Source: Planctomycetota bacterium
GTDB taxonomy: Bacteria > Planctomycetota > UBA1135 > UBA2386
DNA: 64,000 nucleotides
Direction of reading: 5' to 3'
Assembly: GCA_965228735.1 (NCBI GenBank)
Contig: OZ245838.1
Span: 544,001 to 608,000 of the forward strand
Shown one piece after another: positions 2 to 20,876 of this stretch. The position numbers were made by a program, and so were the translations under genes. How positions within the stretch are numbered: the first letter of the stretch is position 1; each line of letters starts with the position of its first letter. The notes beneath the pieces were generated by a model. The model did no database searches, had not been told where the DNA came from, and worked only from the letters and a program-made list of their open reading frames with translations.

Positions 2-1930
2 CAGCACCTGCGTGAGAGCCGTGGGGAGTACTCGGCGCGGTGCCCTGCGCATCCCGACCGCAATCCGAGTCTGACCATTCGCGAGGGCGACGATGGCCGT
101 GCGCTGTTGTGCTGCCATTCGGGATGCTCCGTGGAGGACGTCGTTGCCGCCCTCGATCTGACGATGGCTGACCTTGCGCCGCCGAGTAGCAACGGCGTCG
201 CGCCCATCAGCAAGCCGCGCCCGGTGCCGCAGCGGCCGACGAGGACGTTCGCGAGCGTCGAAGACATCGTCAAGGTCGCCACGAAGCGCGGCGAGACGCT
301 GGTCGCGGCGTTCGTGTATCGGGATGCCGACGGTGATGACGTCGGCGCTGTCCTGCGCTTCTCGACGAACGACGGCAAGAGGATCACACAGACGCGGTGC
401 GTGGACGGCCGCTGGTCGTTCGGTGGGCTACCGCGTCCTGCGCCGCTGTTCAGGCTTCCCGAGCTCCTCGAAGCCGAGGCCGACGAGCCCGTCGTGCTCC
501 TTGAGGGCGAGCAGAAGGCCGATCTCGCAGCCTCGCTCGGGTTCGTGGCGACCTCGTGCTCTGGCGGCGCGGGCAAGGGCAATCTGACGGCCCTGGAGCC
601 GCTTGCCGGCCGGGACGTCGTCCTGCTCGCCGACCACGACGACGCGGGCCGTGCTCACGTTGAGGATCTCGCGGAGCGACTGCGGCGGATCAAGGCGTGC
701 TCGGTCCTGCTGGCGACGTTGCCCGACCTCGGCCCGAAGGAGGACATCGTCGACTACGTCGAGCGACGGCGGGCGTCCGGTTGGGATGACGAGCGGATCC
801 GGCAGGAGATCGCAGGTGTGGTCGCGATGGCCGACGAGATGCCGGAGGAGAAAGAGCCGGACTCGGAGACCCCTGCGGCGACGGCCGACTCAGAGACTCC
901 TGCGGAGTCGGCGGAGTCGGTAGCGCAGGTGCGGACGTTGGCCGACATCGAGCCCCGAGAGATCCGGTGGCTGTGGCCGGGTCGCATCGCCCGCGGCCGG
1001 ATCACGCTGCTCGTCGGAGTCCCGGGCGCGGGGAAGTCGTTCATGATGGCGGACGTCGCGGCTCGATTGTCTGCTGGTCGCCAGTGGCCCGACGGAGGTG
1101 CATGCGAACGCGGCAACGTGCTCCTGATCTCGGCCGAGGACGATCCCGCTGACACGATCCGGCCGCGGTTGGATGCCAACGGTGCCGACGTGCGCCGCGT
1201 GCAGTTGCTGACGATGGTCAAGCGTGGCGCAGCGTCGAAGCGGCGGGAGATCCCGTTCACGCTCGAAGACGTCGACGCGCTGGAGGAGACCCTCGTGAGG
1301 TTCCCCGGTACCAAGCTGATCGTCATTGACCCGATCGGCTCGTTCCTCGGCGGTCAGACCGACGCGCATCGAGACAACGGCGTCAGAGCCGTCTTGGCGC
1401 CTGTCGCAGCCTTGGCTGAGAAGTATGACGTCGCTGTCCTCGTGGTCTGCCACAAGCGAAAGGGCGTCGCGGGCAACGCAGATGAGACCGCGATGGGCAG
1501 CGTCGGGTTCGTCGGGCTCGCACGTCAGGTCTGGCACCTGTCCGCCGACACGAAGAATGCGGACCGCAGGCTGTTGCTGCCGGGGAAGTCGAACCTCGCC
1601 AAGCGCGCGGAGGGGCTGGCGTTCACGATCGCCGGCAACCCCGCGGCCGTGCAGTGGGAGTCGCAGCCGGTCGCGATGACCGCGGACGAGGCGCTGGCCG
1701 AGGAGCGCTCAGCGCAGAGTCGCCGTGGCCCAGATCGGCAGGCTCGTGAGCAAGCGGCGTCGTGGTTGGAGCAGTACCTCGACGGCCGGTGGCGCAGCGT
1801 CGCCGAGGTGAAGAACGCAGCCGAGTCCGAGGGTCATAGCTTCCGGACTGTCGAACGCGCCAAGAAGGATCTCGGGGTTCGGTCTCGCCGTAGATTCGAT
1901 GGCGGACGTGAGTGGGGGATGTCCGAATGA
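2..1930 (+). CDS. Primase-helicase of a mobile element (Zn finger + Toprim + RecA-like AAA_25/RepA helicase); 5' end lies outside the window
   Basis: Frame is open from base 2 (QHLRESRGEYSARCPAHPDRNPSL...CHSGC, CHC2-like Zn finger). Toprim motifs LLEGEQKA and LADHDDAG, Walker A GVPGAGKS, Walker B LIVIDP. Confidence 0.85.
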   Translation, partial: QHLRESRGEYSARCPAHPDRNPSLTIREGDDGRALLCCHSGCSVEDVVAALDLTMADLAPPSSNGVAPISKPRPVPQRPTRTFASVEDIVKVATKRGETLVAAFVYRDADGDDVGAVLRFSTNDGKRITQTRCVDGRWSFGGLPRPAPLFRLPELLEAEADEPVVLLEGEQKADLAASLGFVATSCSGGAGKGNLTALEPLAGRDVVLLADHDDAGRAHVEDLAERLRRIKACSVLLATLPDLGPKEDIVDYVERRRASGWDDERIRQEIAGVVAMADEMPEEKEPDSETPAATADSETPAESAESVAQVRTLADIEPREIRWLWPGRIARGRITLLVGVPGAGKSFMMADVAARLSAGRQWPDGGACERGNVLLISAEDDPADTIRPRLDANGADVRRVQLLTMVKRGAASKRREIPFTLEDVDALEETLVRFPGTKLIVIDPIGSFLGGQTDAHRDNGVRAVLAPVAALAEKYDVAVLVVCHKRKGVAGNADETAMGSVGFVGLARQVWHLSADTKNADRRLLLPGKSNLAKRAEGLAFTIAGNPAAVQWESQPVAMTADEALAEERSAQSRRGPDRQAREQAASWLEQYLDGRWRSVAEVKNAAESEGHSFRTVERAKKDLGVRSRRRFDGGREWGMSE

Positions 1931-2328: not shown

Positions 2329-3510
2329 TTGATGCTACTTGACCCCCTGTTGGGCACGGCCGCGCTGGGGTTCGGCGCGTCCGAGCTCTACAACGAGCTA
2401 GAAGGCGGCGGCGGTGACTACTGGTTCCCTGAGCTCGAAGATACGGGCTCGCCGTATGAGGAAGGCGCACCTGGATGGGACGCCGACGGCATGCCGATTG
2501 GTCGGATGCCCCGTGGCGAGAACGCCTTGCTCTGGCAGTACGAGGCCAACCGCCGCGCGCGCACCCGCCGACAGGCGCTCTGGAACGACGCCACCGGTGC
2601 GCTCGACCAAGGCGCCAACCTGCTTCAGAGCTACCGTCCTGGTGGCTCCGCTGCGCTCGCCAGTGGCATCCATCGCCAGAAGGCGCAGATGTTCGGCACG
2701 CAGGCGCTGAACTACAGCGCACCTGACCTGCTGATCGGTTACCGCGAGGAGCAGCGCCAGATCGCGTTGAAGAAGAACGAGGACGCACTGCGCGACGCGA
2801 CGATGCTCGCTGCGTTCAAGCCGCTGTCCGGTGGGCTGTCGGCCTTGCCGCAGCAAGACCAAGGTAGTCCGGCTGCCGGCGCCGTCGACACCGCGGGAGG
2901 CGGCCCCGCGCCGGGCGGCGGCGGTGGTCCTGGATCAGTCCCGGGTGGTGGGGCTGGTGCAGGCGCATCGGCGCAGTTGGGGCCAGCGGCGAGTCAGCCC
3001 GCTGCGCTTGGTGGTGGCGCTGCCACCGCTGGGCAGGCTGCTGGCGGTACAGCGGCACCCGCCGCGATCGGCGGCGGTAGTGCTCTCGGCGCAGGTGGTG
3101 CGGTAGGTGCCGCGCTCGGTGCTGTCACGGGCGGCGTCGGTGCAGCCGCGGGTGCGGCAGGAGGCGCCGCAGCTGGCGGAGCAGCCGGCGGAGCGGCCGC
3201 GGGAACGGCGGCGGGCGCCGCGGCTGGCACTGCCGCTGGTGGTGCTGCCGTTGGCGGTGCCGCGGCCGGTGGCGTCGGCACGGGGGCGGGCATCGGTGCT
3301 GGCAGTGCGCAAGCTGCTGCGGCTCAGGTTGGCTCGCAGTCCGCGGTGCGGTCGTTCGCCCAGGACGCTGCGCGCAACGCGAGCGTGAAGATCATGGAGC
3401 GGTCCGCGATGCAGCGTCTCGAAGAGGCTGCGTGGCTTGAGAACGCCGACCGTCTCGAAGCACTACGACGTGAACAAGGCGGCCGAGTGATGCTGCCGAG
3501 GGGGCGATAA
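2329..3510 (+). CDS. Hypothetical protein with a long Gly/Ala-rich low-complexity tract
   Basis: 393-aa ORF with GGAGG RBS just upstream; G/A-rich tract in the C-terminal half. Confidence 0.7.
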   Translation: MMLLDPLLGTAALGFGASELYNELEGGGGDYWFPELEDTGSPYEEGAPGWDADGMPIGRMPRGENALLWQYEANRRARTRRQALWNDATGALDQGANLLQSYRPGGSAALASGIHRQKAQMFGTQALNYSAPDLLIGYREEQRQIALKKNEDALRDATMLAAFKPLSGGLSALPQQDQGSPAAGAVDTAGGGPAPGGGGGPGSVPGGGAGAGASAQLGPAASQPAALGGGAATAGQAAGGTAAPAAIGGGSALGAGGAVGAALGAVTGGVGAAAGAAGGAAAGGAAGGAAAGTAAGAAAGTAAGGAAVGGAAAGGVGTGAGIGAGSAQAAAAQVGSQSAVRSFAQDAARNASVKIMERSAMQRLEEAAWLENADRLEALRREQGGRVMLPRGR

Positions 3511-3513
3511 GCC

Positions 3514-4503
3514 ATGCAAGACGACATCGCATTGAGATCTCAGCAGTACGCCTTGCAGGCGGACTCCACTCGCATTCCCTACGACATGGCCAAGGCACGC
3601 GCGGCAAGCGAAGCCGGCGGCGCCGTCGGCATGGGCATTGGCCGGACGTTCGATCGCATGCAACGCCAGAGCATGTTCGATGCTCGGCGTGCGATGGGCG
3701 AACAGTCACTGGCTCTGGATCGAGCCCGCGTCGTCTCCGAACTGGAGAGCGATCGGCTGCGGCAACAGCAGGCGCAGGAGAACCTCCAATGGGCCCGAGC
3801 GCTGCACTCGACCGACATGGTCCGCTACCAGAAGGACATGGTGAAGGCCGACAGAGACCTTCACGTCGCCCGTGCGCAGAAGGAGATGATGGAGCTCCAC
3901 AGCACGGACGCGGACCTCGGCGACGTCAACTCGTACGAGGAGATGATGGCGATCCGTGCGCAGGGCCTCACGGCCAAGATGGTCGGAGGCCGGCTGCGAA
4001 TCGAGCCGCTTGGCGACCCGAAAGCGCAGGCTGAGGCGAAGCAGGCGTTGGGGTTGTTGCGCAGCCGGATGGCAGGTCGCAGTGGCGATCTCGGGCAGCA
4101 ACTGCGCTACGTGAACCAGTCGATCCTCGACATGGTCGACGCTGGCCAGGACTCCGTGCCGACGGGCGAGAAGGACGAGAAGGGACTCGATATCCACGAG
4201 CCGAGTCCGACGTTCCAACGGCTCCAGAAGCTGCGTGACGCCCTCACGGAGCGCTACACGCAGGGGCTTCAGGGTGGCAAGCCTGGGCCGTCGACCGCTG
4301 GTAGCGACAACCAGGGAGTCGACAGAGATGGCGATGCGCCGAACCCGGCGGCTGACGACAACCAAGTTGATCTCGGCAAGGCTGGCGGTGTCCGCAACTT
4401 CGATCAGGCTTGGAAGGACGCCGTTCCCGATGCCGAGAAGCTCGCATCCGAGTTGATCAGCGAGGACGTCATGTCTGCCGCGGGCGCGGGGTACGGCAAG
4501 TGA
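3514..4503 (+). CDS. Hypothetical Gln/Ala/Met-rich helical protein
   Basis: 329-aa ORF starting 3 nt after the previous stop. Confidence 0.7.
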   Translation: MQDDIALRSQQYALQADSTRIPYDMAKARAASEAGGAVGMGIGRTFDRMQRQSMFDARRAMGEQSLALDRARVVSELESDRLRQQQAQENLQWARALHSTDMVRYQKDMVKADRDLHVARAQKEMMELHSTDADLGDVNSYEEMMAIRAQGLTAKMVGGRLRIEPLGDPKAQAEAKQALGLLRSRMAGRSGDLGQQLRYVNQSILDMVDAGQDSVPTGEKDEKGLDIHEPSPTFQRLQKLRDALTERYTQGLQGGKPGPSTAGSDNQGVDRDGDAPNPAADDNQVDLGKAGGVRNFDQAWKDAVPDAEKLASELISEDVMSAAGAGYGK

Positions 4504-8435: not shown

Positions 8436-8715
8436 GTCCCGGCGAGAGCCTAGGCCGGACAGCGCTGCGGTCATGGCCCGAGGTCGCGAAGTCGCAAGAT
8501 TCTCGAACGCGCGTAGCGAATTCTGATCACGCGACTTGCGACGATCACGGAAGGTGAATCCAAAGAATCTCCTTCATTCCGCGAAACCTTCGGCCGATCT
8601 CGCACGTAGTTAGACCACCGCGTGCGGCACGTCGTCGCACGAAGTGAAACAGCCCCTGCCAGCGTTGGCGCGCTGACAAGGGCCTAGACAACCCCTGATT
8701 GCTCCAGGAGATGCC

Positions 8716-9354
8716 ATGGCTCCCAAGCCTACCGGCGACCGTTCGCCGTTCTACGCTCGTACAGAGCGCTCTCAGCCGACCCGCGAAGAATGGCTCGGCC
8801 GTCTCGTCGACCTGTTGCGCGTCGACTTCACCGCAGCCGGTCATCCGTTGCCCGAACGTATCCGCGTGTCGTGCGGCTGGCCGTCGCGCTCGGCGATGTC
8901 CGGCAGCAACCGCAGGATCGGCGAAGCCTGGTCCGCGAGGGCATCCGGTGACGGTGCGCACGAAACGTTCATCACGCCGGCTCTCTGCGATCCGATCGAC
9001 GTCGGCGCCGTGCTCGTCCACGAACTCGTTCATCACGCCGTCGGTCTGGAGTGTGGGCACAAGGGCCCATTCCGCCGGCTGGCCCTCGCCCTCGGTCTCG
9101 AAGGCAAGATGACCGCGACGGTTGCCGGCGAGGAGCTGCGAGACCGTTTACACGCGCTCACGAATCACATCGGTCCGTACCCGCACGCGGCTCTCGAAGG
9201 GTCGACCAACAAGAAGCGGCAGACGACGCGCATGCTCAAGGTGACGTGCTCGGCGTGCGGTTGTCTCGTCCGGATGACTCGTCAGTGGCTCGACACCTGC
9301 GGCGTCCCAACGTGCGGCTGCGGTGGCGAGATGATCGAGGAGGGCAACCGATGA
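8716..9354 (+). CDS. SprT-like zinc metalloprotease with C-terminal Zn ribbon
   Basis: HELVH, downstream GHKGPF, CSACG...CGCG; AGGAG RBS. Confidence 0.8.
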   Translation: MAPKPTGDRSPFYARTERSQPTREEWLGRLVDLLRVDFTAAGHPLPERIRVSCGWPSRSAMSGSNRRIGEAWSARASGDGAHETFITPALCDPIDVGAVLVHELVHHAVGLECGHKGPFRRLALALGLEGKMTATVAGEELRDRLHALTNHIGPYPHAALEGSTNKKRQTTRMLKVTCSACGCLVRMTRQWLDTCGVPTCGCGGEMIEEGNR

Positions 9355-9809
9355 GCGCTCGCCACGTTCGCGTTGTCGCCGGCCCCGATGCCGTGCGGAA
9401 GGTTCGCAGCTCGGTCTCTCCGCGATCGCGGTGGCCGCATCACTCGTGCTCGACTGTCTCCATGGTCGGCCGGGTGTCCGTCGACGAGTCCGGGGCGCTT
9501 GCTCTCGCTCTCGGAGAGTGTGTGTTGGCCAACGGTGCAACGCTCGTGCTCTCCGACTTGCCCGAGTGGCGTCGGGAGACGGTCGAGGCTGTCGGCCATG
9601 CGTGGCGCGAACAGTCCGTGACCCTGCGGGGTGCATCGCAGCCGGTTCGCGTGCGGTCGTACTTCGATGTCGTCGCCACTCACGAATTCTGCCCGTGCGG
9701 GATGCGTGGTCGAGATGGCGCTACGTGCGCATGCACGCCGTCGATGATCCAACGATGGGAGACGCGTTGCAGCGACTTCCTGCGCATGCTCGAAGGGGGT
9801 GCCCGATGA
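9351..9809 (+). CDS. Degenerate ComM/YifB (Mg-chelatase-like) AAA+ core fragment, 152 aa
   Basis: PHHS, GECVLANG, LSDLPEW, CPCG..CACTP..IQRW follow YifB motif order; ATGA overlaps on both sides. Confidence 0.6.
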   Translation: MSARHVRVVAGPDAVRKVRSSVSPRSRWPHHSCSTVSMVGRVSVDESGALALALGECVLANGATLVLSDLPEWRRETVEAVGHAWREQSVTLRGASQPVRVRSYFDVVATHEFCPCGMRGRDGATCACTPSMIQRWETRCSDFLRMLEGGAR

Positions 9810-10279
9810 CTGGCACCCTCGCCGTGCGTCGCTCCTGGCGCCGCGTGCGCTTGTCCCTCGTCAGGGAGCAGGCGATTGCCCCGTACGCAGTTCGTCACGC
9901 AGGGGATGTGGTTGGGCTCGTGAGCGAGTTCCTGCGCGACGATCCCCGGGAACGGTTCGTGGCCGTCTATCTGGACAGCCGACACAAGACGATTGCCGTC
10001 CACGATGCCCACGTCGGGACGTGCGACTCCTCACCCGTGCATCCGCGCGAGGTCTTCGGGCCGGCGGTCGCGTTGTCGGCGACGGCCGTGATCGTGGCGC
10101 ACAACCATCCGAGCGGAGACCCGACACCGAGTCCTGAAGATCGTTGCGTGACCGAGCGACTGCGCAAGGCCGGCGACCTGCTCGGTGTCCCGGTGCTCGA
10201 TCACCTCGTGATCGGGGATGAGCGGTACTACTCGTTCGCCGAGGAGGCGTTCCGCAACATGCCCGGGGGTGCGTCGTGA
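9806..10279 (+). CDS. radC: RadC-family JAB domain protein
   Basis: RERFVAVYLD, VHPREVF, AHNHPSGDPTPSPED, VLDHLVIG. Confidence 0.92.
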   Translation: MTGTLAVRRSWRRVRLSLVREQAIAPYAVRHAGDVVGLVSEFLRDDPRERFVAVYLDSRHKTIAVHDAHVGTCDSSPVHPREVFGPAVALSATAVIVAHNHPSGDPTPSPEDRCVTERLRKAGDLLGVPVLDHLVIGDERYYSFAEEAFRNMPGGAS

Positions 10280-10962
10280 CCGGCAAGGCGATCGGCTACC
10301 TACGCGTCTCGTCTGCCTCGCAAGCTCAGGACGGTAAGGATGGCTTCCCGCGACAGCGGGCGGCCGTCCGGGCCTACTGCACGAGCAAGCGTCTCGAACT
10401 CGTCGAGGAGCATGCAGACGCAGTGTCCGGGACGACGCCGCTCGAAGGCCGTGAGGCGCTCTCAGAAGCTCTCCGGCGCTGTGACGTTGTCGGGGCCAGT
10501 GTCCTCGTCGTCGAGCGCGTGGACCGTCTAGGACGCGACCTCGTGGTCTCTGAGATGATCGTGAAGGCGTTCCGCGATGCTGGCGTGTCGATCGTCTCAG
10601 CTGACACCGGGGAGAGCCTGACCGACGCGGAGAACGATCCGAGTCGGAAGCTCATCCGCCAGGTGCTCGCTGCGCTTGCCGAGTACGAGCGCAGTGCGTT
10701 GGTGGCGAAGCTCCGTGCAGCTCGAGACCGCAAGAAGCGCAACGGTGGTCACTCGGTCGGGTGCTACCGGTTCGGGGAGCATCCCGAGCGTCCTGGCGAA
10801 CGAGAGACGTTGGCCAGGATCCGTGAGCTACGTCGGGTGCGTGGTGGACGTCGCCGGTCGTCGATGGCCGACGTGGCTGCGGTGCTCAATGACGAAGGGC
10901 GTGAGAGCCGCAGTGGGCGGACGTGGTCGGCTGCGATGGTGCGAGACGTGGTGGCGCGTTAG
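10276..10962 (+). CDS. Serine recombinase (resolvase/invertase family)
   Basis: GYLRVSS catalytic motif, VERVDRLGRD, LAALAEYER. Confidence 0.92.
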   Translation: MTGKAIGYLRVSSASQAQDGKDGFPRQRAAVRAYCTSKRLELVEEHADAVSGTTPLEGREALSEALRRCDVVGASVLVVERVDRLGRDLVVSEMIVKAFRDAGVSIVSADTGESLTDAENDPSRKLIRQVLAALAEYERSALVAKLRAARDRKKRNGGHSVGCYRFGEHPERPGERETLARIRELRRVRGGRRRSSMADVAAVLNDEGRESRSGRTWSAAMVRDVVAR

Positions 10963-12558: not shown

Positions 12559-13029
12559 ATGGTGTCAATCCCCTGCGGTGCGTCCGCTCGATGTAGCATC
12601 CGATTCGTGGGCAAGCCAGCCGGAACCAAGAACGTCACCGACGAAGAGCGCGAACGAATTCGGGAGCTCTACCGGCAGGGCGTGCGCTTGGTGGACATCG
12701 TGGAGGCCGTGGGGCGCTCAGAGTCCGTCGTCTACCGCACCGTGCGCGGCATGAAGCGGCCGCGCCTACCGTTTCGGCACTACAAGAACGACAAGCGCAA
12801 CGATCGCATCCTGCGGCTCATCGAGAAGGGGCGAACGCATGCCGACGTAGCGCGCACCGTCGGGCTATCGCCTCGCCAGATCGGCTACATCGTCGAGCAC
12901 CACCCGAGGATCGCGGAGTTGCTCCATCACGAGGACTGGAAGCCGTCGGAGGTGTCTGAGGTCTACCGGATCTCCATCGAGAAGGCGCAGCGCGTCAAGC
13001 GTCGGAAGTCGGTGCCTCACGAGCGATGA
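12559..13029 (+). CDS. Multi-HTH DNA-binding protein (start uncertain)
   Basis: HTH-like segments LVDIVEAVGRSESVVYR, HADVARTVGLSPRQIGYI, PSEVSEVYRISIEKAQR. Confidence 0.65.
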   Translation: MVSIPCGASARCSIRFVGKPAGTKNVTDEERERIRELYRQGVRLVDIVEAVGRSESVVYRTVRGMKRPRLPFRHYKNDKRNDRILRLIEKGRTHADVARTVGLSPRQIGYIVEHHPRIAELLHHEDWKPSEVSEVYRISIEKAQRVKRRKSVPHER

Positions 13030-14320: not shown

Positions 14321-14604
14321 GGCTGAAGCGGCGGCATCTCGTTCGAACCATTCCGGTACGCCAACCGAAGCTCCCACCACTCAGGAACGCGAACCCCCTT
14401 CCTGATGGCGTCTGCTCGACCGCGAAGAGCACCCTTCCTCTGAGCGTCTGTGAGCCTTGCTCCCGTCGTCTTCGCCATGAGGCTCATGCACATGGCTCGA
14501 TGATCATTCGTCGCACACAGAGCCTTCTCGAACCTTCTACGCACATCTCCCAGATCAGGCACCGTATCCCGGTCTGAACCGCCCCGGGTTCTCCGGAGGC
14601 TCGG

Positions 14605-15830
<1,226 letters not shown>

Positions 15831-15956
15831 CGCTACATCCTCTCACGTCTGGGAGCCTCCGAGAAACCCGGGGCGGTTCAGTCTCTTAGTGGGATACCGA
15901 GTCCATGCCATCGATCGATACCCTTGGGGTCCTTGGTCCTGGGCATGGGGGTGATT

Positions 15957-16661: not shown

Positions 16662-16871
16662 TCAGTTCCTCGACACGTCCTGCTCGTCCCTCACCCAGCC
16701 CTTCAACTGCTCGGCTGCGGTCTGCGCTGCCCGTAGGTCTCGGAGAGCATCCCGGACCGCTTCCCGTAGCTGCGGGATCTGCTGCCGGTAGACCGTTGCC
16801 CGGTGTCGCAGCTCGGCGAGGAACACCTCTGGGTGTCGTTCACCGTCGTTGCTGATCGTGCCTCTGACCAT
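16662..16871 (-). CDS. Small coiled-coil hypothetical protein
   Basis: 69-aa ORF ending about 10 nt before the next start. Confidence 0.45.
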   Translation of the reverse strand: MVRGTISNDGERHPEVFLAELRHRATVYRQQIPQLREAVRDALRDLRAAQTAAEQLKGWVRDEQDVSRN

Positions 16872-19437: not shown

Positions 19438-20712
19438 CTAGCCGAGGTCGCGCATCACCTCGGTCGCGAGCTTCTGCTGTGCGGCCCTCGTGTAGAGCTG
19501 GGTGACATCCAGCGTCCAGTGGCCGCCGATCGCCGCGGCGGCCTCCAGCCCGCGCTTCTCGCGGATCCTTGACAGCGCGGCGTGGCGCAGCATGTGAGGT
19601 GTCCACCGACCAACCTTCGCTTTCTCGCATGCGCGGCGGATGGCGACCTGCACGGCGTTCGTCGTGTAGGTGTCCCCCGGGATTCGCTTTGGCTGGGCTT
19701 GCCTGCGTCGAGCGTTCTTGGCTTGGCGGGTGGCCGCCTTGGCGTCGTCCAGGTCGGGACGTCGGCGCCCGTTGGCTTCGGTAACGGCGTCGCAGGGGCG
19801 GAACCAGGGGCGGTCGGGGGAGATCTGGAGGAAGGGGCGCAGGATCGCTTGTGCCTCGGATCCGATCGGGATCACGCGGTCCTTCCCGCGGTGGGTGGTC
19901 TTGTGCTGCGGGGGAGAGAACAGCCAGACATCACCGCGCATTTCGACGTGCTCGCGAGCGAGCTGCACGGCCTCGCCCATCCGCGCGCCGGTGTGCCAAC
20001 AGAACCAGACGAGTGCAGCGACTGGTCGCGGCAAGTGGGTGACCGTGGCCTTTACCTGGTCCTCGGTGACGGGTTCAAGGCCGCTCGTCTCTCGAGCTCC
20101 ACTGCGGCCCGCCTTGAGTGCAGGCACCGTCGCGAGGCGGTGGTAGGTAGCCGCAGGGACCAGCTCGTTGGCCTCGGCCCATCGGAACATCTGCTTGATA
20201 CGACGGACGACGCCGTTGATGTAGTTCCGGCTGAAGGTCTTGCCGGTGCCGGGGATCTCACGGCCAAGCTTGTCGTGCTTCTGGCCGTAGCGGCGCCCGG
20301 TGAGTCCATCCTGGAACTGCGCCAGCTTGCTCGGTCCGAACTCCTCGGGGTGGACCTGGCCGAACGACTCGGTCAGCATGAGGCACGCTCGCTGGATCGA
20401 GAGGTGTTCGCCAGTGTGCGAGCCGTCTGCTCGACGGTAGTAGCTCTCGGCGTGGGCCTCGAAGCGATCGGCGAGGTCCCGCAGGTTGCGGGGGCGCGCA
20501 CCTGGCTCGGCGGCCCGGGCGACAGGGAACTCGTTGCCGCCTGCGATCCACTCGGCGAGGAGCTTGCGGTAGCGCTTCTCGGACTCCTCTCCAGGACGGC
20601 CGAGGTAGTAGTCGCGGCGCGAACCGCGAGGGTTGGTCAACGTGACGACAGACTGCCCCGTGCGCTTGTGCAGACGCAACTTGGGCAGGGAGCCAGCAGG
20701 GGTGCGGGCCAT
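19438..20712 (-). CDS. Tyrosine recombinase / phage-type integrase
   Basis: HTGARMGE (R), HKT (K), PHMLRH (HxxR), IGGH, TQLY (Y); adjacent to a tRNA fragment. Confidence 0.93.
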   Translation of the reverse strand: MARTPAGSLPKLRLHKRTGQSVVTLTNPRGSRRDYYLGRPGEESEKRYRKLLAEWIAGGNEFPVARAAEPGARPRNLRDLADRFEAHAESYYRRADGSHTGEHLSIQRACLMLTESFGQVHPEEFGPSKLAQFQDGLTGRRYGQKHDKLGREIPGTGKTFSRNYINGVVRRIKQMFRWAEANELVPAATYHRLATVPALKAGRSGARETSGLEPVTEDQVKATVTHLPRPVAALVWFCWHTGARMGEAVQLAREHVEMRGDVWLFSPPQHKTTHRGKDRVIPIGSEAQAILRPFLQISPDRPWFRPCDAVTEANGRRRPDLDDAKAATRQAKNARRRQAQPKRIPGDTYTTNAVQVAIRRACEKAKVGRWTPHMLRHAALSRIREKRGLEAAAAIGGHWTLDVTQLYTRAAQQKLATEVMRDLG

Positions 20713-20829
20713 GCGGAACCTCTCGAATGCGGTAGGGATTGCGGTAGTCGCAACCCGAAGAGGCCGCACGACGCCCGCCGCTCGGCGGTTCGCGGTGATC
20801 GAACTAGCGATCGACGGCAGGGTTAAGAA

Positions 20830-20876
20830 TGGAGCGGGTGATCGGGATCGAACCGACGACATTCAGCTTGGGAAGC
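20830..20876 (-). tRNA. 3' half of tRNA-Gly(CCC); att-site remnant, not an intact tRNA
   Basis: Minus strand reads GCTTCCCAAGCTGAATGTCGTCGGTTCGATCCCGATCACCCGCTCCA (anticodon loop, T arm, acceptor 3' strand, CCA). No D arm or acceptor 5' strand upstream. Confidence 0.88.

Follow-up and report, generated by a model that had tools for sequence, protein, structure and literature searches.

A selected, catalytically dead ComM derivative on a planctomycete genomic island, possibly a decoy against host ComM

One benefit ascribed to natural transformation is that it rids genomes of parasitic DNA. One locus in a Planctomycetota genome raises the question of why a mobile island should maintain a gene for a small, dead-looking copy of ComM, the branch-migration helicase of the transformation pathway, in a host whose own comM is intact. 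The gene, here called mini-ComM, was pointed out in a reading of the letters alone (the sequence-only reading), which proposed that its product mimics ComM and protects the element from being cured. We analysed the gene within the window, that is, the whole 64,000-nt stretch of DNA from this genome (G000), together with its homologs, its predicted structure, and more distant relatives on mobile DNA.

The mini-ComM gene and its island

Mini-ComM lies at 9351–9809 on the plus strand and encodes 152 aa, a ComM AAA+ core without the P-loop, the catalytic residues, the Lon domain, or the C-terminal domain. The ATGA coupling described for both of its ends was borne out: the sprT-like stop overlaps the mini-ComM start at 9351–9354, and the mini-ComM stop overlaps the radC start at 9806–9809. 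The next junction, between radC and a recombinase gene, is a GTGA overlap. A ribosome-binding-like run, GAGGAGGG, is read 5′ of the start (9337–9344, plus strand), and a search for sigma-70 promoter-like sites found none. Contigs from four public runs, one of them perhaps the run from which the window itself derives, showed zero base differences or indels over the stretch, so the gene is not an assembly slip. Two longer frames were rejected as genes: the same-frame ORF at 9051–9809, because the homologs begin at the codon equivalent to 9351, and the radC-frame ORF at 9431–10279, because its extension has stops in the other two copies for which DNA is available.

The ComM/YifB motifs quoted for the protein were each found, in the order claimed. 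Mini-ComM matched Pfam Mg_chelatase (PF01078; E 1.9e-15, exceeding the curated cut-off), the only Pfam domain found in it, and TIGR00368 (E 5.5e-13) at 48 bits, far under the full-length cut-off of 362 bits. The ComM sequence of 8rxd was matched at E 2e-12, and a profile–profile comparison with ComM ATPase domains gave a probability of 99.6%. These matches, with the RxPHH motif and the zinc finger, confirm the ComM origin of mini-ComM. Identity to the host ComM core is about 37–40%, and no nucleotide match to host comM was found. PHROGs and PADLOC gave no family matching mini-ComM, and phage and plasmid records gave matches of only about 25–34%, the annotated ones being YifB/ComM-type genes.

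The first gene of the coupled run (8716–9354, plus strand) had been read as SprT-like. It has no Pfam SprT match; it does have an HExxH motif, a match to PHROG 6361 (E 7e-48), and Atlas neighbours at 0.98, 36–44% of whose members have PF10263. A SprT-like zincin with a C-terminal zinc ribbon is therefore kept as a lead only. Directly downstream of mini-ComM, the radC call was confirmed by a RadC JAB match (E 1.9e-41) in a JAB-only protein of 157 aa (9806–10279, plus strand). It is followed by a small serine recombinase of 228 aa (10276–10962, plus strand; E 2e-29), consisting of a resolvase domain and a short helical tail. A 14-pair hairpin at 8651–8684, about 30 bases 5′ of the sprT-like start, may regulate the four-gene run, although chance alone would be expected to give one hairpin of this kind.

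The run belongs to an island of 23 kb that has a 45-bp copy of the tRNA-Gly(CCC) 3′ end on either side. The right copy is at 20830–20874 of the window (564830 of the genome), the matching left copy is at genome positions 541754–541798, about 2.2 kb left of the window, and the tRNA itself is at 643632. Family matches identified a tyrosine integrase (19438–20862, minus strand) and a primase-helicase with Toprim and AAA_25 domains (107–1930, plus strand). An insertion sequence with an rve transposase (14574–15883), of which the genome holds four more full-length copies at 99.8–100% identity, is unrelated cargo. The island has a GC content of 64% against 69% for the genome, its cargo is mostly unmatched, and the ORFs scanned gave no match to capsid or conjugation families.

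Several features of the surroundings were seen in passing. The tRNA-Gly(CCC) 3′ end occurs in four copies, one near-exact (G000:C1 489186, 541754, 564830, and 643632), which suggests a tandem stack of three islands spanning about 155 kb; the part of the window past 20874 is probably from the next island. A degenerate tandem repeat directly after the primase-helicase gene (1932–2088/2006–2160, about 74-bp spacing, 73% identity) is a candidate replication origin. Two ORFs of 393 and 329 aa at 2329–4503, one with a long Gly/Ala-rich run and neither with a Pfam match, look by eye like phage injection or pilot proteins.

Two further copies of mini-ComM are available as DNA. One is in the same genome (5185379–5185828), in a similar island at a tRNA-Pro; the gene upstream of it has a DUF669-like look but gave no match in a Pfam scan. 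The other, locus L008 of genome G301, was found by a GTDB pattern scan. Its island, also 23 kb long, has a 49-bp direct repeat, and no tRNA gene was found at the island ends. This island contains an integrase, DUF1580, a DnaB-N/AAA_25 gene, and a type I restriction system. The proposed conserved order of sprT, mini-ComM, radC, and recombinase holds on the downstream side at all three loci; the sprT-like gene precedes mini-ComM at two of them, and L008 has extra ORFs. A third island of G000 has a close radC (77% identical) and no mini-ComM, which makes mini-ComM an optional cargo.

In that island, at about 1.908 Mb of G000 (L004:7775–9473), a small ORF, radC, and a tyrosine recombinase occupy the slot of mini-ComM, radC, and the serine recombinase, and the constant unit seems to be radC followed by a recombinase of either class. 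The two mini-bearing islands of G000 have an HTH gene and two short stretches in common, the mini-radC segment being only 73% identical; window positions 12606–13006, 14353–14486, and 16685–16858 match 5199724–5201929 at 86–92% identity, suggesting later exchange between the two islands. In the L008 island, a NADAR domain is fused to a type I restriction specificity subunit (L047:10010–12133).

Selection on mini-ComM and what it keeps of ComM

A protein search gave six matches among 126 candidates, namely the query and five homologs, one of which is the second G000 copy and another of which corresponds to L008. The close homologs are 151–154 aa long with 53–75% identity and identical start and end places, and stops and frameshifts are absent from all six. 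Among the three copies with DNA, dN/dS was 0.23, 0.23, and 0.27, the bootstrap upper bounds of pN/pS were at most 0.49, and the differences were mostly at third codon positions. The neighbouring genes gave values in the same range (radC, 0.18–0.33; recombinase, 0.23–0.31; sprT-like, 0.24). Mini-ComM is a selected, maintained protein-coding gene. Both things on which the sequence-only reading hung, likeness to ComM/YifB and intact homologs under selection, were found.

No further close copy was present among the matches listed for 300 genomes of the class (best other E 8e-21 vs 3e-86), among 400 genomes of the phylum (sole match, a 541-aa frame), or in metagenome contigs. The close clade is rare in the genomes searched, and its size as given here is a lower bound. 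Its members share five invariant clade-specific substitutions (W28, C57, S68, W73, and W136).

The protein had been said to lack Walker A. It has no GxxxxGK[ST] motif, but only the P-loop is gone in the structural model: residues 2–148 superpose on ComM 209–383, so the Walker A strand and the next helix are retained and the P-loop is shortened. Residues 5–22 (9363–9416, plus strand) comprise this strand, GP, and the following helix (strand 7–10 and helix 14–19 in the model), and the P-loop core is deleted with direct fusion to the next strand, the exact register of the deletion being judged by eye. The ComM insertion between helix 1 and RxPHH is also cut out in the model. The RxPHHxxS motif, invariant in ComM and the close clade, follows at residues 27–34 (9429–9452, plus strand), and then a constrained helix-2-insert (H2i) hairpin, 7 residues longer than that of ComM, at residues 40–55 (9468–9515, plus strand). 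The dead Walker B, LVLSD, is at residues 65–69 (9543–9557, plus strand) within the segment 56–74, and the ComM-type four-cysteine zinc finger, CPCG-x8-CxC, is at residues 114–128 (9690–9734, plus strand), with Glu just before it in place of the sensor-1 Asn.

The reported change of Walker B from LFLDE to LVLSD is true of all six close homologs. None of the six keeps the Walker A Lys-Thr, the Walker B Asp-Glu, or the sensor-1 Asn, the last being Glu in the six columns tabulated and Gly in P0004, which is outside that table. All six also lack the sensor-3 Arg (R316), the C-terminal domain with R463, and the GPLLDR motif, whose Arg we take to be at the usual AAA+ arginine-finger position. Residue roles follow PMC11612176, where the name arginine finger is applied to R463. 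The N-terminal Lon-like domain (Lon ring) and the DprA-binding domain are absent as well. Catalytic death thus stands, with the Walker A Lys, the Walker B acids, the sensor-1 Asn, and the trans-acting arginines all missing. Of 61 positions with a conservation of 90% or more in canonical ComM across the region kept, the six close homologs retain 20, comprising RxPHHxxS, a G, GExxLA, LxL, two Glu, and the four-cysteine zinc finger. With this anatomy it cannot, as judged from sequence, be a motor.

AlphaFold2 gave a model with pLDDT 95.3 from a 62-row alignment that consists mostly of canonical ComM pieces and so biases the model toward the ComM fold; folding with the six close homologs alone gave 46.8. 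Mini-ComM is predicted to have a compact ComM/MCM-like AAA+ fold, and it is a remodelled small domain rather than a broken end. Over the AAA+ core from the Walker A strand to the CH1 helix, it aligned with ComM (8rxd and 8rxt) at Z 11.9 and rmsd 2.8 Å over 125 residues. RxPHHxxS, GExxLA, LPE, and the four-cysteine zinc finger are shared as well. The best structural scores came from MCM cores (8w0f chain 6 and 6mii; Z 13.6, rmsd 3.5 Å, 138 residues), because the short helix-1 link and long H2i of mini-ComM resemble those of MCM. However, identity to MCM is 13–17%, the sequence match is E 0.14 against 2e-12 for ComM, PF00493 (MCM) gave no match at E up to 1, and the N-terminal OB/zinc tier and the MCM sequence family are not those of mini-ComM. 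Since the zinc finger and PHH are of the ComM type, the likeness to MCM is topological and not one of ancestry.

We compared codon-pair counts pairwise among the three copies, pairs that are not independent of one another. Segment 56–74 had 0 amino-acid-changing and 22 synonymous-only codon pairs, the H2i hairpin 8 and 23, the RxPHH segment 6 and 11, PS1-beta 22 and 7, and the CH1 helix with its tail 33 and 16. PS1-beta and CH1 are elements that ComM uses on DNA (PMC11612176). We infer that the strongest amino-acid constraint is on the face around the dead active site and on the zinc finger, and the conservation of 56–74 may simply be that of a hydrophobic core.

Other ComM derivatives on mobile DNA

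The profile search for ComM derivatives covered the best 120 of 189 matches. Twenty further degenerate forms of 216–383 aa and one from G301 were hand-picked by their missing motifs, so that the loss of GPLLDR among them is partly due to selection. The G301 form is a second dead mini-ComM, divergent and 186 aa long, on a prophage fragment (L042:1498–2058, G301:C118) near DUF6011, AAA_24, and terminase genes; it lies upstream of the AAA_24 gene. A separate form, P0008 (219 aa), is amid small phage-type ORFs with GP88. Among the mobile ComM derivatives found, mini-ComM is the smallest.

An unselected view was obtained from the best 80 of 138 viral loci, 70 of which were parsed: 25 copies lack GPLLDR, 20 are canonical, and 25 end before the end of the zinc finger. 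The last class mostly looks like host genes cut by insertion, and two counted in the first class (L063 and L089) are probably cut host genes too, while two of the ten unparsed loci (L071 and L078) look derived. The sensor-3 Arg is also missing from 20 of the 25 copies without GPLLDR. Among 22 non-redundant copies without GPLLDR, the Walker A Lys is kept by 20, the Walker B Glu by 21, the four cysteines by 22, and the sensor-3 Arg by 5; canonical viral copies keep the sensor-3 Arg in 17 of 17. The search patterns themselves account in part for the retention of RxPHH and of the Walker B letters in the viral set. Judged by these residues, the longer mobile relatives look like proteins intact in cis and dead in trans, the pattern that a poison subunit would show: able to bind ATP, but not to complete the site of a neighbour. 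Mini-ComM stands at the far end of this series. The neighbours of the derived copies are mostly small genes without a match, with a few mobile-type families, and two canonical viral loci carry dprA. Some of the viral contigs with derivatives are 100–300 kb long, and the large phage contigs are probably lytic.

In a FastTree phylogeny of 122 rows and 108 columns, in which long branches may attract, the mini clade (support 0.989) joins the G301 mini, P0008/P0017, and P0027 at 0.937. It falls inside a 44-member group, 42 of them derived (support 0.882), and not among the comM genes of the host class. A few derived forms fall elsewhere in the tree, and more than one origin is possible.

Some viral matches were set aside. 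L010 and L049 are chance matches in the frames of other genes, and the long ORF of L112, considered as a fusion, is an open upstream frame. At L134:3179–6550, a derived ComM is in a 1124-codon frame with about 500 unmatched C-terminal residues and is possibly a true fusion. In the cut-comM class, the gene is cut right after the sensor-1 AMN motif at L087, L090–L095, L097, L099–L101, L105, L106, L110, and L121, a recurrent integration point inside comM that at some loci has serine recombinases.

A proposed decoy against host ComM and other readings

G000 has an intact comM of 525 aa with Walker A and B, the GPLLDR motif, and all other motifs, as well as comEC, dprA, yraN, and a full-length radC. 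With these host genes and its place on a mobile element, mini-ComM has the setting that a transformation inhibitor would have. In the fragmented assembly of G301, the search gave only the 3′ end of a comM, at the edge of a contig, and no comEC. By its length and its catalytic residues mini-ComM is outside the ComM helicase family, ComM being about 500 aa long, and an ATP-dependent hexamer, helicase, or branch-migration activity is predicted to be absent.

The reading that we prefer, with a probability of about 0.45, is that mini-ComM works against host ComM without catalysis, as a decoy or as an inhibitor that caps the ring, and would in this way shield the island from removal by transformation. 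ComM stays a monomer as long as ATP and DNA are absent (PMC11612176), and the assembly of its ring on DNA with ATP would be the stage at which capping occurs. The constrained face around the dead site is where a ring ATPase would take up its neighbouring subunit; mini-ComM might dock there on a host ComM subunit, offer the next subunit no surface, and so cap the hexamer. D13 and E112, acidic residues at the former P-loop and sensor 1, may stand in for the nucleotide phosphates, which is speculation. Alternatively, mini-ComM might titrate a partner of ComM such as YraN, which binds ComM (10.1101/2024.02.06.579203). In either case, the island would benefit by being spared deletion by incoming transforming DNA. 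The DNA-contact elements PS1-beta and the CH1 tail are looser than 56–74 and H2i, which we count in favour of a decoy. A decoy against DprA was rejected, since DprA binds and recruits ComM through the C-terminal domain that mini-ComM does not have (10.1101/2024.10.21.619469).

The step from the anatomy of mini-ComM to ComM as its target is one that we infer, and several points tell against it. With the P-loop, Walker B, Lon ring, and DprA site gone, mini-ComM is not an ordinary poison subunit recruited in the normal way, and most of the normal assembly contacts of ComM are missing. The low identity to host ComM and the five invariant substitutions could mean a new partner. Some relatives occur in large phage contigs and one in a prophage recombination cluster, settings in which a pressure from curing is less evident. 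A complex prediction for mini-ComM with the ATPase part of host ComM scored 0.15 against a mark of 0.32, which speaks neither for nor against the decoy.

Among known inhibitors of transformation, a comM-targeted insertion, RokLS20, RocRp, ComI, PilB inhibitors, and IdeA share the goal proposed here, and RokLS20 and RocRp, too, are host competence factors copied onto mobile DNA (PMC12378983, Table 2). No inhibitor listed in that 2025 review is a dead copy of ComM or a protein that works on recombination; a comM insertion and an sRNA are listed but no protein acting on ComM, comM is said to be often disabled by mobile-element insertion, and the role of ComM in curing is called open. A full-text search of openly accessible papers found no report of mobile, catalytically dead ComM copies. 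Mini-ComM is best described as a further host competence factor copied onto mobile DNA, its function being putative. If the decoy reading is true, a dead copy maintained on an island that spares comM would directly show selection on elements to counter ComM itself, and mini-ComM would be a small expressible tool for testing the idea of curing. The series from near-full-length forms to 150 aa would also reveal the ComM surfaces that count once catalysis is gone, among them the zinc finger, which is poorly resolved.

A broader history can be proposed more tentatively. Phages and islands would have captured comM repeatedly or anciently and pared it stepwise. The trans-acting arginines would have gone first, the C-terminal and Lon domains next, and the ATP site last, leaving a ring-capping transformation inhibitor of 150 residues, often with a JAB-only RadC. 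Mini-ComM would then be the minimal working unit of a widespread anti-transformation system made from the host's own motor.

The main rival, less probable than the decoy, is that mini-ComM instead serves as a non-catalytic partner of the adjacent RadC. The two genes would then travel as a mobile module, and their products would act on nucleic acids or on proteins of the host while the element establishes itself, independently of host ComM. The radC gene is downstream at all three close-clade loci, which share ancestry. In the set of 80 viral loci, the best of 138, a radC gene is found at a distance of up to 6 kb from 5 of the 25 copies without GPLLDR, from none of the 20 canonical copies, and from 1 of the 35 other loci (Fisher test, p 0.043 one-sided and 0.056 two-sided). 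A radC query found 48 places in 2.3 Gb of phage records, for which about 0.006 would be expected in the 291 kb examined, although the loci and this background rate come from different collections. Identity among the five radC-linked copies is only 37–55%, and in Legionella comM and radC are co-repressed competence genes (PMC12378983). However, 20 of the 25 derived viral copies have no radC in the fetched flanks, the G301 prophage mini has none in its 10-kb contig by ORF inspection, and the third island of G000 has radC without a mini; both genes may merely favour early cargo regions. In our analysis, the recurring linkage would suit a RadC cofactor as well as a decoy. It also offers a handle on RadC, the function of which is disputed (PMC5512222). 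The RadC cargo of mobile elements described there resembles this locus in its JAB-only RadC and zincin-type neighbour, and the words chelatase and YifB do not occur in the main text of that paper.

An improbable reading is that mini-ComM is a decoy against a different target, a sponge or mimic blocking a host defence or repair protein that recognises AAA+ or zinc-finger surfaces. Its relatives amid small phage-type ORFs (with GP88, DUF6011, DUF4942, and DUF3560 neighbours), the occurrence of some in 100–300 kb contigs, and the invariant substitutions peculiar to the close clade would agree with this. Yet PADLOC has no match for mini-ComM, and the only motifs kept are those specific to ComM (RxPHH and the zinc finger), which points to the ComM pathway.

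We regard as distinctly improbable an ATP-independent DNA-binding protein whose long H2i and zinc finger protect or remodel recombination intermediates of the element. Such a role would account for an H2i hairpin of MCM size under constraint, the invariant helix-2 Ser and CH1 Arg (equivalent of R369), a basic predicted pI in five of six close homologs, and the place of the prophage copy upstream of an AAA_24 gene. It sits poorly with PS1-beta and the CH1 tail being least constrained, with a PS1-beta Arg in only two of six homologs, with a net charge that goes from +10 in the host core to −1 to +10 in the minis, and with the requirement of ATP for DNA binding by ComM (10.1101/147660).

It is very improbable that mini-ComM is what is left, as a decaying scar or a replacement fragment, of a comM gene that formerly served for integration: cut comM genes do occur beside serine recombinases at several of the viral loci, an isolated phage carries a comM piece next to its integrase, and comM fragments may be how the family first arose, but such fragments, although they too are partial comM on mobile DNA near a recombinase, have intact Walker motifs and an abrupt end, whereas mini-ComM has internal, in-frame deletions, full-length homologs under purifying selection, and islands bounded by direct repeats unrelated to comM, beside an intact host gene, so that the earlier rejection of an insertion scar stands.

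One further observation concerns the zinc finger, which is kept in every derived copy. At L082, L084, L085, L102, and L104, its cysteines are replaced (NPSP[ST]G) in otherwise canonical comM genes, apparently showing that the finger is dispensable in some active-type ComMs.
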